A stretch of 58,009 nucleotides of DNA from Planctomycetota bacterium (GTDB taxonomy: Bacteria; Planctomycetota; Planctomycetia; JALXBF01), in assembly GCA_026981825.1 (NCBI GenBank), contig JALSID010000227.1, positions 1 through 58,009 on the forward strand, read 5' to 3'. Each line of letters starts with the position of its first letter. The stretch's first letter is position 1. The translations under genes were made by a program, and so were the position numbers. The notes below the pieces were generated by a model. That model was not told the DNA's origin and searched no databases. It worked only from the letters and a program-made list of their open reading frames with translations. Positions 51,501-57,500 of the stretch are shown in pieces.

Positions 51501-54500
51501 GGGTAGGCTATGGCGATCTCGTCACCGGGCGTGGCCGGATCGAAGTCCCCCGCCAGCGGCGTACCACCGGGAGCTCCGAACTCGAACGGCAATTCGTTCG
51601 GCATGCGGTCACCGCCCAGATCCAACCGCCACAGGCCGGTGACTCGATCGTAGGTGCCGAGGTCGTCGTCGCCGTCACCATCCCAGTCGCCGATCACCGG
51701 GATCAGCCGCTGCCCGGTGCCAAAGGCATAGATCGGATCGTCGGGCTGCAGGTTGCCGTTCTCATCGAGCTGGAACTCACCGGTCTCGGGGTTGAACACG
51801 CCGATCTCGGTGGCACCATCGCCGTCCCAGTCGCCGGTGATGCCCATCCAGCCCGCTGCGCCGTAGAAGACCCTCGCATCGCCGGGACGGTCGTCAACCC
51901 GATTGCCGTTCGTGTCCAGCACCCATCCACCGGCACGTCGGACGCCAACGGGCGTCGTGGTAGTCAACCGTGGAGCAGCCCGGTCGACGACGATCGTCAG
52001 TGTCTGCGTCGACTGATTACCGGCCAGGTCCGTGACTCGCAGTTGGATATCGACCTCGCACGTGGAGAACTCGGGGCACAGGTCGAACAGCGGCTCGATG
52101 AAGAACGTGCCGTCGGCTGCCGTCACCACTCCGGCAGTGCCGTCATCGAAGTCGCCGATCGGATCGAGCTGCCCGTCGGCATCCAGGATCGGCAGCAACT
52201 CACCCGTACGCAGGTCCTGGATGCGGGTGATGTCGATCTCGACCGCCATGTTCTCGGTCGTGCCCGGGAACACGTCGGTCGCGATGCCGCGCAGCAGCGG
52301 CCGCGGCTGGTTCGTCTTGCTGTCGAGCTGCACGCCCGTGTCACTGGACTCGTCCAGCTCGAACGCTCGGATCACAGGGTCGTCCAAATCGACGGCGAAG
52401 GTCAGAACCTGCTCGGCCACAGGATTGCCGGCCAGATCGGTCAGGCCCTGGTTCGAGTGGATAATGAGGCGGTAGCGGTCGATGCGCAGCTCACCGCCAG
52501 ACAGCTCTCCCTGGGTCGGATCGCCAGAGCGCGGGTCGAGCACATTCAACGTCAGATAGCCAGGCTCGATGCCTGCCACGGACACGACGCGGATCCGCAC
52601 CTCGTTGCCGTCGTTGAAGATGTCGCCGTCCTGGTTCAGGTCTTCGGGCCCACCCGCTGCGATAATCTCGATCGTGGCCGGAAGCTCAGCGTTTTGGAAC
52701 GATCGGATCGCCTCCTGGCTCAAGTCACGGCCGAAGATGCGGAGCTCGTCAATGTAGCCGTCGAACGTCGGATAGACCCCCTCACGCCCGCCGACGATCA
52801 ACGGCTCATCGGTATCGGAGAGCCGCAGCGCGAGCTGGCCTTCGCGGTCGAGGTCGCCGTTGATGTAGATCCGCCAGGTACCGGGTTCATCCGTGGGCAA
52901 TGGCTGGCGATCGGGGTTGAAGGTGATCGTCAGTTGATACCACTCGTTTTGACTCAATGGCGTAGCGGACCGGATCTTCTGCGTGTCCTCACCCCCACTC
53001 AGGGCATGCGGCCGCATCTCGGTGACGGCTCCCGAGCCGTTCTGGCCCGGCGCCAGTTCGGCACGCACCAGGGTCGAGGCCACTGGATGCGAGTTCACGA
53101 GGTCGCGCACCTCCAGGGCAGTGGTCTCACCCGGATTGCGGAGCGTGATGGAGATCAACGCCTCACCACCTGTCAGAGGCTGAAGCGGCATGGGACGGAC
53201 GCGACCAAAGCCGGTGGGGTTCTCGGGCGCCAGAGCCGCGGTGATGATGCCGTTGGCCGGGCTCGTGGGGGCATTCCAGGCAGCGATCACCTGGGCGGCC
53301 GTGCTGATCGGCCGACCGGTCTCGTCGGTCGCCAGGTAGACGGTGAAGTGATCACCGCTGCGCACGATCCGCAGGGGCGAATTCGTCCCCTCGGCCACAA
53401 ACTGGATCCTGTAGTTGTTCCCTTCGATACCGGGCGTCACTGCGGTGAAGCGGATGTCGTTGTCGTCACCCGGGAAGGCGGTGGTCAACTGAGCCGCCTC
53501 CGTCGTCACGCTGAGCGACGGCGTTGGGTTGGGCGTGGTGGGAACAACGTACTGGATCCGGATCGAATTACCCGCGGCACCACGCTGCTGGGCGGTGAAG
53601 ACCAGATCGTTGTCCTGACCTTCGAGGTTCGTCTGCAACGTGGCGGCCCGGTGCCGGCCCACCGGGAAGACCTCGAACACCACGAAGTCACGATTGCCCC
53701 CTAACCGATCCGGATGACGCGGATCGTTCTCCAGATACAGCACCCAGCCACCGTCGAAGGTGCCGTCCTTGTGCTTGGCAAGGATGGGACGAATGTTGGG
53801 GTCGGGCCGCTGAGGCCGTGTGCCGAAGTCGCGCGGGTTGATCGTAACCTGGAGCGTGAACGATCCATCCAGCCGCTGCAGGTGGGTGGCGCCCAGCGGC
53901 ACGACAGCCCCGGTACCATCGTTGCCCGGAGCAAGCTCGGCAGTCACGACCGTGCCCGCCACGGCGTTGATCGCATCACGCACCGCCGCAGCCGTGTTCT
54001 GCGCCGGATCCAGGTTACCGTCCGCGTCGGTGGCCAGAAGCACCGTTACGCTGCTGCCATCCACCTGCACGCTGAGGGGGTTGTTCGGCGTACCAGGATC
54101 GCGGTACTCAATCGTGACATCGGCCCCCGCAGGACCGGGATCCACCGCGGTGAAGAGCAGATCGTTGTTTTCGCCGGGGATCCGCGCCCACAGTCTGGCC
54201 GGACCTGCCGCCAGATCCAGACTGCCGGTCGGGTCGTCTTCCACGGTGATGTATGCCTTGCCGCCGTCCAGGAATACGGGCGGCATCGGCCGCACCGGGT
54301 CAGAACCGTCCTCTCCCGGAGGCAAGGAGACCTCGATAAGTGCCGACGCGGCAGGATCGGCCTGCAGGGCGGCGAGCACGTCCGCAGCCGTGGACAGCAC
54401 CTGGCCGTTCGCGTCTGTTTCCAGGGTGACAACGATTGCCGAGCCGTTCACCGCAACGCTCAGCGGTGCCGGATGCGTATCGGAGAGTCGGTACTCCACG

Positions 54501-57500
54501 GAGATCTGGTTCCCCGCAGGCCCCGGTTCGACGGCGCGGAAGACCAGGTCGTCGTTGGCCAAGGGCAGGTCCGTAACGGCCGAGGCTTCCTGTTCGACCC
54601 GATTGTCGAACGGGCCGCGGATGAAGACGCTCTCCAGCGATTCGGCCACCGGGTTCCCGGCCAGCCGGACGCCGCTGTTCAGGACCCGGAACGCATCGCC
54701 GACGGCCGAGGCATCGTTGCCGTAGAGCGAGAGGTCCGGCACGTCGATCGGCGGGAAATCACCCGGCTGGAACCGCAGCGGGAAGTCACCCGGCTCGAGG
54801 TCGAACTGCAGGTACGCTCGCAGGTCGTTCTCGAGCAGCAGCATCGTCTCGGGCTGGCCCGTCGTGTCCGTGTTCGGAATGTTGACCAGGAACACGGCGC
54901 TGTCGGCAAAGGTCTCCAGATCATTGCCCACAGCTTGAGTCCAAGCTAGGTGGGCCACGCCGTTGTACGCAGCCAGACCGATGTATTCGAGGTACTGGTT
55001 GAGACCGTTCACACCGGAAGTCGGAGCGACGGACAGATCGTCCGAGATCTGAACCTCCGGCTCCCACGTTGTCCCCCCGTCCACGCTGAAGCTCATGAAC
55101 ACGTTCACGCCGGTGTTGGACGGGTCATTGCGGGTATCGTACCAGATCGCCACCACGGCCCCCGTCGCCTGGTCAACGTCCAGGGTGCCGTTGAACTGGC
55201 TGGCATCGTTCGGATCCTGGCTGTGGACCTGCACCGGTTCCGACCAGGTGAGGCCACCGTCATCTGAGTACTGGACGAACACGTCCGTGTCCGTGGCCCG
55301 GTTGGCCCCCACGTTGTGCCAGAGCATGTAGAGGCGCCCGGTGTTCGGGCCGCCGCTGCGGTCCACATCGATGGTGATCATCGGCGCCACGTCACGGACG
55401 CTCTGCGCCGGCAGGTCCTGGTTGAAGGACATCTGCGTCACGGCCGCAAGTCGGTCGACGCCGAAGTTCAGCCCGCCGGCCAGGCCGTTTGGATCCACGT
55501 CCACGTAGATCGGCTTGTCGCGGAAGTCGGTAGAGGCGGCCGAGGTCGCCTGGATCCAGGTCACGTACAGCTCGCCGTTCGGGCCCACGGCCACGTCGGA
55601 AAGCTGAACCACGCCGTTCGACAGCGGGAATGGCGAGACGTCTTGCACCGGCACCGGTGGCACGAAGTTCATGGGCAGAGGACCGTTCTCGTCGGCCACC
55701 GGGCTACCGCTGACAACGATGTCCGCCACATCGTCCACGCCATCCTCATTCGTGTCGGCGAACCGTGTCCACGAGATGTACAGGTTGTCCTGCAGCGGAT
55801 TCTCGGCATCGGGCCCGATGTCAATGAACCACTTGTCGTGGAAAACGCCTGAGGTTGGCGCGTCAAACACCACAGGTTCGATTTCGAACGTCTGGCCCCC
55901 GTCCGTGCTCCGGCCCACCACGACCACGCTGCCGCCGAGCGAGGTCTCGATCCCGTAAGCGATGTACACGTTGCCGTAGCGGTCGAACTCGACAGCGGGA
56001 TCGAACCGGGTGTTGGCCGTGATGCCATCGACGTTAATGTCGATCGGGGTCCGGCCCCAGGTCAGACCTCCATCGAAGCTGTAGAACACATCCATGGTGC
56101 TGGTGCCAAGCCGGTGCGTGAACGCAACCAGGTTCTGGGGGTTGGTGGGATTAACCGCGACCTGCACTTCGCTCTGACCGAAGCTCGGATCGTTGCTGAC
56201 GTTCACGTCCGGACCGCCGACCGGGGTAACCGGTCCCGTAACGTCAGGCGCCTGGCCGGACACGAACGGGATCCGGATCTGCCGGAGGTTGTCCGGGATC
56301 TCGACCCGTCCCGCCTCGGGCGGAGCACTATCGATGCTGATGGTGGTCACCGCGGGCAGCGAGAGATTACCGCTGCGATCCTGGACGCGAACGCGGATCT
56401 GGCGGCTATCGGTGTCGGTGAGCGGGAACCGCGCCTGAACCAGGGCCTCCGCCAGGATCAGGTTCGTGCCGGGTAGCAGCACGGGGTTACCATCCACGTC
56501 GCGCAGGATTCGCGTGAAACCAACGCCGTCATCGAAGAGGCCGTCCCCGTCCGTGTCCAACTCCACCCGCAGCCCTTCAACATCGTTGGAATCGTCGGTC
56601 ACCAGTACGCGGAACAGCGGACGCCCGTGCCTGGTCAGGATGGGCTCAAAGGCATCCTGTTCGCCGGTGTCGCTTGAGGGGGCAACGGTGAACCGCTGGA
56701 CGAGCGGCGGCAGAATGTCCTGCAAGTCGTAGGCACCGATGTCGAAGAACGGGTCGGTACCAACACCGAGGTTGGGCGTATTCGGATCGTCGATGCGGTC
56801 CAAGCCATCGTGATCGATGGTGGAGAAGTCACCCGGCCGCGGATCATGGGTGACGACCCGTTCGGCCGCAAAGGTCGGCTCGGGCACCGTGCGCTCTGGA
56901 TTGCGGAAAGCTGAGACCAGCAACACCGCACCACCCGTGGAACGGTCGATCGCCTGGCGCTCGGTCTCGAGCCGGTCCGCGGCGTTCGACAGAGCACGAT
57001 CGATCGCCGCCGATCCCCTCATGATTCGGAGATCGCTTGTGGGGTCGACGAACCGCGGATCGCCATAGACCGGGTTGTTGTTTTGACCGGGCGGCAGGTT
57101 CGTGTCCACGGTGTTGTTCCAGAACAGGTTGAAACCGGCCACAGTGAGGGGGGCCGAAGAGGAATCGCCCTGGAGCCCGATGATGGTCGAGTTCGCGATG
57201 ATGTTGTTCATCACCGTCGGGCCCGCACCGTCGGTGAGGCGGATCGCGATGTCATTGATTGAGAAGCTGTTGTTCACCACTCGGTGGTAGGGGATCGCCG
57301 GCGAGGGGGCAGCCAGGGCCTGATTGCCGATCAGATCGACGGCAACCGAATTCTGCAGGAAGACGTTGTTCCAGATGTCCACGCCCGGAACCAGAGCATC
57401 CATCGCGTTCGGATCGAAGCGGAACGGATCCGGAATCGAGACCGTGGCATTGACGCCACCTGCGCCGCGGATGCCCACGGGCTGCACCCGGACGCCGATC

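Follow-up and report, generated by a model that had tools for sequence, protein, structure and literature searches.

Giant adhesins of the repeats-in-toxin (RTX) type contain split domains with an immunoglobulin-like (Ig-like) fold. In these, a ligand-binding domain comes between a single N-terminal strand and the remainder of the fold (PMC12077191, crystal structure 9CSE; PMC10865825). The split domains project the ligand-binding domain off the fibre axis, with the binding site distal (PMC12077191, PMC10865825). Sideways projection of a head by a split Ig domain is therefore a published principle and not a new one. Split Ig-like domains serve as a marker for the ligand-binding heads of giant adhesins, and their interrupted sequence hides them from homology tools. 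Here we describe a protein region of related design in a Planctomycetia bacterium. It is encoded on a 58,009-nucleotide stretch, contig JALSID010000227.1 (the window), whose minus strand carries part of a giant gene. In this region a laminin G-like (LamG) domain hosts small modules, one module hosts another, and an Ig-like stalk domain probably encloses the whole together with a BNR beta-propeller.

The minus strand has an uninterrupted reading frame between 45536 and 58009, where the contig ends. It encodes 4,157 amino acids (aa), its start is cut off, and the nested region occupies aa 560-1874. Four such cassettes are known, in three genomes. One is in the window and one is in a Planctomycetota metagenome-assembled genome (MAG) of the same family as the source (G001). 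The other two, G002_0 and G002_1, are in a Planctomycetia MAG of the same order (G002). The proposed layout, which the evidence supports in part, is an Ig-like domain holding a propeller and a LamG domain; the LamG domain holds three modules, the last of which holds a fourth (Table 1). A preliminary description of the window had read this as a nest four levels deep, from Ig to LamG to module to module. The inner part of that scheme, LamG to module to module, was borne out directly, while the Ig level stands by profile comparison. The propeller adds no level to the nest, because it lies beside the LamG domain within the same split.

The module inside a module was seen in two ways. A hidden Markov model (HMM) made from the window's own copies of the module finds three full units and splits a fourth around the last of them, with columns 1-44 ahead of it and columns 44-100 behind. 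When its two parts are joined, this outer module aligns cleanly to intact modules. An AlphaFold2 model of aa 1460-1678 (52976-53632; 49-row alignment) has a mean predicted local distance difference test (pLDDT) score of 95 and a predicted template modelling score of 0.85. In the model, both modules of the nested pair fold as strand, short helix, three strands, helix, two strands. Strands of the outer module flank the inner one, which is inserted after strand 3 and before strand 4; those of the outer N part are at aa 1469-1473, 1483-1488 and 1498-1504. HMM and predicted structure together confirm the nesting. G001 shows the same split-module pattern, as do G002_0 (two cases) and G002_1 (one case).

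The LamG domain that holds these modules is itself interrupted. In its native form it matches Laminin_G_3 (PF13385) through columns 62-150 only, at aa 1671-1768 (53.7-55.3 bits, gathering cut-off 27.6), and the remaining jelly-roll was recognised by eye in two earlier pieces (Table 1). Joining the three pieces raised the Laminin_G_3 score from 56.4 to 60.3 bits and widened the match to columns 41-150. Set against 28 contiguous LamG domains taken from metagenomes, a profile of the joined domain from three cassettes aligned over 198 columns with both junctions crossed (hhalign 99.7%, E 1.4e-26). Because the joined domain aligns end to end, the LamG domain is complete and carries foreign sequence in two loops. 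The profile comparison confirms it as host of the modules, as the preliminary description had proposed. In the G002_1 cassette, two modules occupy a LamG loop other than those used in the window.

At the top level, an Ig-like domain had been proposed to open before the propeller and to close only after the LamG domain. The peptides on which this rested are correctly placed on the minus strand: DSAPPEAGRVEIPDNLRQIRIPF at 56332-56264 (aa 560-582), IEIIAAGG at 52672-52649, YRLIIHSNQGLTDLAGNPV at 52474-52418 and LTFAVD at 52405-52388 (aa 1869-1874). About 1,190 aa (aa 585-1775) separate the two Ig pieces. The N piece opens with a D-x-x-x-P motif, as other Ig-like domains of the protein do, and has two runs of alternating hydrophobic residues. 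This alternation is kept in all four cassettes, across which the N piece is 29-82% identical. The C part is conserved in G001, G002_0 and G002_1, and the same three cassettes keep the preceding Ig-like domain ahead of the N piece. In the window, the domain that follows the C part starts DLDDPVIRAF.

We compared the joined Ig pieces of the four cassettes with six intact Ig copies of the same proteins. In global hhalign the joined pieces covered template columns 1-158 (80%). The C part alone aligned to columns 43-158 of the intact copies and not to the first 42. In this alignment, then, the C part is shown to lack the first 42 or so columns of the intact copies, and these are the columns that the N piece matches. 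A local hhalign of the joined domain (90.6%, E 1.3e-6) ran through the junction and aligned QIRIPF with the intact copies' QIVVTF strand. The earlier claim that the two pieces match the halves of intact copies held at the level of profiles only, and Pfam Big_5 did not match the joined domain. We regard it as quite probable, from these alignments, that the two pieces pair physically as one split domain.

The alternative that survives best is a string of beads at the top level. Here the N piece would be a linker or would add an edge strand to the Ig-like domain ahead of it, aa 1776-1874 would form a self-sufficient sandwich, and the nest would have three levels. Several observations speak for this and weigh against a split Ig domain. 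With its 99 aa, the C part could in principle make up a small sandwich by itself. Adding the N piece raised the hhalign score modestly, from 28.6 to 34.7. When 120 other stretches of the cassette alignment, each 32 columns wide, took the place of the N piece, these controls scored 25.2 +/- 3.3, and one of the 120 reached the observed value. Intact Ig copies match Big_5 (PF13205; 33.5 bits, aa 3493-3595), whereas the joined domains of the window, G002_0 and G002_1 matched neither Big_5, even at E 10, nor any other Pfam Ig family. Their sole Pfam match was a weak one to CopC (E 0.036) across the G002_0 junction. Because of the Big_5 mismatch we do not count the split domain as a Big_5 member and call it an Ig-like relative of the intact copies. 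A profile of the joined domain found nothing among PDB sequences; the profile of the intact copies found weak matches to KIR Ig domains only. Searches of the genome, the giant proteins and 401 genomes of the class turned up no unsplit copy of this Ig subtype that could stand for the state before insertion, and four cassettes in three genomes are too few for covariation to be used. Finally, an AlphaFold2 model of the G002_0 cassette (1,026 aa, both Ig pieces, 4-row alignment) was uninformative, with a mean pLDDT of 35. Given this low-scoring model, the lack of a Pfam or PDB match and the missing unsplit copy, we infer the pairing and do not count it as shown.

Against the beads-on-a-string arrangement stands the alignment of the C part, which begins only at column 43 of the intact copies, so that alone it would lack strands A and B. 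The passage of the local alignment through the junction also argues against it, as do the domain-opening motif and the strand-like alternation preserved in all four N pieces. The relatives in G002 add a further point. In its two giant proteins the N piece, VDTVTPQANRATLPSPQQVLIELTEPV or DTVRPGVQTVTSSLSSSDLVMEFDEQV, goes straight into the LamG domain, the C part comes after LamG, and the propeller is absent. Since the two Ig pieces flank the LamG domain with or without a propeller between them, they travel together. A comparison of orthologs with and without inserts had been called for. It gave a relative that keeps both Ig pieces without the propeller, and did not give the unsplit copy that was sought in the 401 genomes. 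On balance the serial arrangement is unlikely. An Ig-like domain as host of propeller and LamG is well supported by the profile comparison and by the propeller-less relative.

The N piece could also pair elsewhere, as a "velcro" strand of the propeller or in a LamG sheet, with some other segment completing the Ig C part. Propellers are often closed by a strand from the opposite chain end. Yet the G002 cassettes keep the same N piece without a propeller, so the N piece is not part of the propeller, and the joined LamG domain aligns fully without it. We consider this pairing very improbable.

Further observations concern Ig-like domains in these proteins. The C part of the split domain holds an Asp/Asn-rich loop, NQDGDIFNDGNE (52595-52640, aa 1790-1805), which aligns with GADHLLNTADD of the intact copies and may be a calcium site. 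Other Ig copies of these proteins are interrupted too, which speaks for the split. A second interrupted Ig-like domain lies at 49424-51997 on the minus strand (aa 2005-2862). There VDRAAPRLTTTTP precedes about 720 aa of FG-GAP/VCBS-like repeats; the C part behind them, aa 2755-2841, fits the intact-copy HMM through columns 68-154 only (E 8.5e-9). In G002_1 (L021, aa 5486-5716) there is a small, clean case of a module within an Ig domain. Ig halves at aa 5486-5536 (HMM columns 3-54) and 5666-5716 (columns 106-165) flank a single 88-aa module (aa 5566-5653).

The preliminary description had also placed a BNR propeller between the Ig halves, and this was upheld. Four Asp-boxes (S-x-D-x-G-x-T-W) occur at aa 644, 701, 915 and 975. 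A scan of the segment gave PF02012 (BNR) at 29.6 bits, above its cut-off of 27, and PF13088 (BNR_2) at 27.7 bits, under its cut-off of 31.4; NCBIfam has no family for it. The segment has the repeated Asp-boxes and the length by which BNR/Asp-box propellers are recognised in sequence, and we claim no enzyme role for it. In the G001 protein, a 55-58% identical copy has an FG-GAP repeat on either side (aa 3735-4160; L013/L014). More distant copies occur in other contexts in G002, none of them in its cassettes. Judged by these placements, the propeller behaves as a movable guest domain.

A path of the chain can be proposed from these parts. The Ig-like stalk domain would begin with two short strands. 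The chain would then leave the Ig fold, form the propeller and next the LamG jelly-roll, of the concanavalin type. One LamG loop would carry two alpha/beta modules in tandem, and another a module with a complete second module plugged between its strands 3 and 4. Back in the Ig domain, the chain would add the remaining five strands, and the stalk would carry on with the following Ig-like domain. LamG jelly-rolls and closed propellers have adjacent N and C termini. If propeller, LamG and modules all have their chain ends side by side, as we assume, each guest can bud from a loop and leave its host unbroken. The outcome would be a stalk with a large head that projects to the side and probably binds glycans or surfaces.

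The region is best explained as the compound head of a giant fibre protein that is secreted or sits at the cell surface. By analogy with known adhesins, its likely function is adhesion to glycans or surfaces through this head, on a long stalk that is possibly stiffened by calcium. The sideways projection of the heads, which the preliminary description had also suggested, would follow the same analogy. More tentatively, the split Ig halves, the LamG loops and the module loops could be standing "sockets". Guests would be gained, lost and moved among them by recombination, so that the head is rebuilt in each lineage, and the module would be an unannotated, self-nesting plug-in of flagellins, phage proteins and giant adhesins. 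Three observations bear on this idea, which we regard as possible at best: the propeller is present in one family and absent from the same site in a sister family, its 55-58% identical copy lies within an FG-GAP array of the same protein, and paralogous cassettes carry modules in different LamG loops.

The window is the entire contig C227 of a 446-contig MAG (G000). The G001 ortholog is 77% identical across the whole 4,153-aa alignment (77-78%), has the same order of parts and lies inside an 8,800-aa frame, so the window carries roughly the C-terminal half of the protein. The N-terminus of the giant gene is on a separate small contig of G000 (C156:1306-3456) and shares 79% identity with aa 1-719 of the G001 ortholog. 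About 3,900 aa from the middle of the gene are missing from the G000 assembly. The G001 protein starts MKHASRRFF...LEQLEERVLLA, with an Arg-rich stretch and the leader-like motif LEQLEERVLLA. On contig 3 of G002 (L015-L018), a propeller-less cassette is found in each of two adjoining giant frames, which measure 15,185 aa and at least 7,020 aa. A chimeric contig uniting unrelated pieces, as a fragmented MAG, a gene cut at the contig end and the missing middle might suggest, is hardly credible given a frame open across 4,157 codons, an independent MAG with the same part order and a third MAG with the cassette twice.

On the window protein, Pfam finds Big_13 and Big_5 Ig-like domains, the BNR region, the C-terminal two thirds of Laminin_G_3 and C-terminal RTX repeats; FG-GAP-like repeats were read directly off the translation. 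A scan of metagenomes returned generic LamG domains only and no further cassette. Word-based homolog searches returned relatives of the propeller only and, for the double module, one fragment.

Table 1. Parts of the nested region and the stalk domain before it, in the order of the protein chain; positions are those of the window, and columns are those of the intact Ig copies, the module HMM or the Pfam family named
Part	Window position	Strand	aa	Description
Preceding complete Ig-like (Big_13-like) stalk domain	56333..56704	minus	436-559	Ends ...VTTISI; read from translation
Ig N piece	56258..56332	minus	560-584	25 aa, DSAPPEAGRVEIPDNLRQIRIPFVS; columns 1-31 of intact copies
Linker		minus	585-599	Pro/Gly-rich; between Ig N piece and propeller
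BNR (sialidase-superfamily) beta-propeller	54875..56212	minus	600-1045	Four Asp-boxes; Pfam BNR
LamG piece 1	54587..54850	minus	1054-1141	hhalign of joined LamG
Module 1, LamG loop 1	54260..54556	minus	1152-1250	About 100 aa, alpha/beta, sheath-like; HMM columns 1-99, E 3.6e-47
Module 2, LamG loop 1	53876..54169	minus	1281-1378	HMM columns 1-97, E 5e-42
LamG piece 2	53624..53875	minus	1379-1462	hhalign of joined LamG
Module 3 (outer), N part	53483..53614	minus	1466-1509	HMM columns 1-44; strand, short helix, two strands
Module 4 (inner), complete	53162..53464	minus	1516-1616	HMM columns 1-100, E 5.9e-45; AlphaFold2 pLDDT 95
Module 3 (outer), C part	52988..53158	minus	1618-1674	HMM columns 44-100; AlphaFold2 model
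LamG piece 3	52685..52987	minus	1675-1775 (to 1779 in the joined LamG)	Pfam Laminin_G_3 columns 62-150
Ig C part	52388..52684	minus	1776-1874	99 aa; columns 43-158 of intact copies

The module is widespread. In a full HMMER scan of 1.84 billion representative proteins, at least 1,940 passed E <= 0.001, and for nearly all of them the match was to the module. Carriers include multi-module proteins of 450-1,050 aa and a 754-aa flagellin (P0021) with modules in tandem in its variable region. Among the 134 top database proteins with the unit, 22 (about one in six) have a module inside a module; the insertion point in most of these differs by one strand from that in the planctomycete cassettes. No Pfam or NCBIfam family covers the module. 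Foldseek found no match in the PDB at E <= 1e-3, and in BFVD the only significant fold matches were six uncharacterised phage proteins. Sheath proteins recur among its weak Foldseek matches. The module scores 14.6-20.3 bits against Pfam Phage_sheath_domII (PF17481), under the gathering cut-off of 31.4, and it matches PDB chain 8fop_T at E 0.09 with the common motif ITLTARNAGTIGN. With every score below threshold, the identification of the module as a tail-sheath domain was rejected. A confident predicted fold for this widespread unit is now at hand. Its habit of nesting within itself makes the module useful for the annotation of surface proteins and possibly a natural scaffold for domain display.

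RTX nonapeptide repeats are present in the window protein, where Pfam HemolysinCabind (E 6e-33) marks 7 stretches near aa 3981-4016; matches to NCBIfam RTX models all stay under the respective cut-offs. The best match in G000 to the HlyB-type ATP-binding cassette (ABC) transporter of type I secretion systems (T1SS; TIGR01846) scored 319.6 bits, over model positions 173-689, which is below half of the 725.55-bit cut-off. Because the genome is 95% complete, this does not prove that a T1SS ABC transporter is absent. By eye, the N-terminus of the G001 ortholog is unlike a LapA-type retention module. Despite the RTX repeats, membership of the T1SS RTX-adhesin class (LapA/MpIBP/FrhA) is not established, because no HlyB-type transporter exceeds the cut-off and the leader-like motif is a different one.

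If the split Ig domain is real, the design reaches beyond proteobacterial T1SS adhesins into Planctomycetia, one split can bear a compound head of 1,200 aa, and nesting can recurse through four levels. For the source organism, the head region would mark where to seek the cell's adhesion target.

Nested insertion is known from other proteins as well. In gp18, the contractile-tail sheath protein of phage T4, outer domains are inserted into inner ones. The module has a weak sequence and fold resemblance to the surface domains of sheath proteins, but its scores are all sub-threshold and no PDB match reaches E 1e-3. Flagellin is built by successive insertion too, with the outermost domain most exposed at the surface: D0 to D3 are nested as hairpins, and its hypervariable region takes further insertions, as in flagellinolysins (PMC5595980). 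The variable region of P0021 carries the same module of about 100 aa in tandem. Unlike the Ig and LamG hosts described here, the flagellin hosts D0 and D1 are helical, and flagellin polymerises whereas the window encodes a single giant chain.

The RTX adhesins come closest. As in these, an Ig-like stalk domain here is probably discontinuous, with a very short N section (one strand of about 12 aa in FrhA), a foreign domain and then the bulk of the fold. Both kinds of protein have guests that are lectin-like or otherwise of a binding type, with their two ends together, and both are giant fibres of Ig-like extenders with RTX repeats at the C-terminus. Further nesting is found in AhLap, where an RTX beta-roll holds a vWFA domain that holds a 9-kDa insert. 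A profile search of the PDB detected no sequence similarity to the published split domains. The Ig N section has two strands here and one in the RTX adhesins, and the planctomycete host has the leader-like motif ...LEQLEERVLLA at the N-terminus. The insert is about 1,190 aa long, against about 150-300 aa in RTX adhesins; a propeller and a LamG domain share one split, and the nest goes one level deeper. What is new in this locus is the size of the insert, the two large guests in one split, the proposed depth of four levels, the planctomycete host and the unannotated module that nests within itself.

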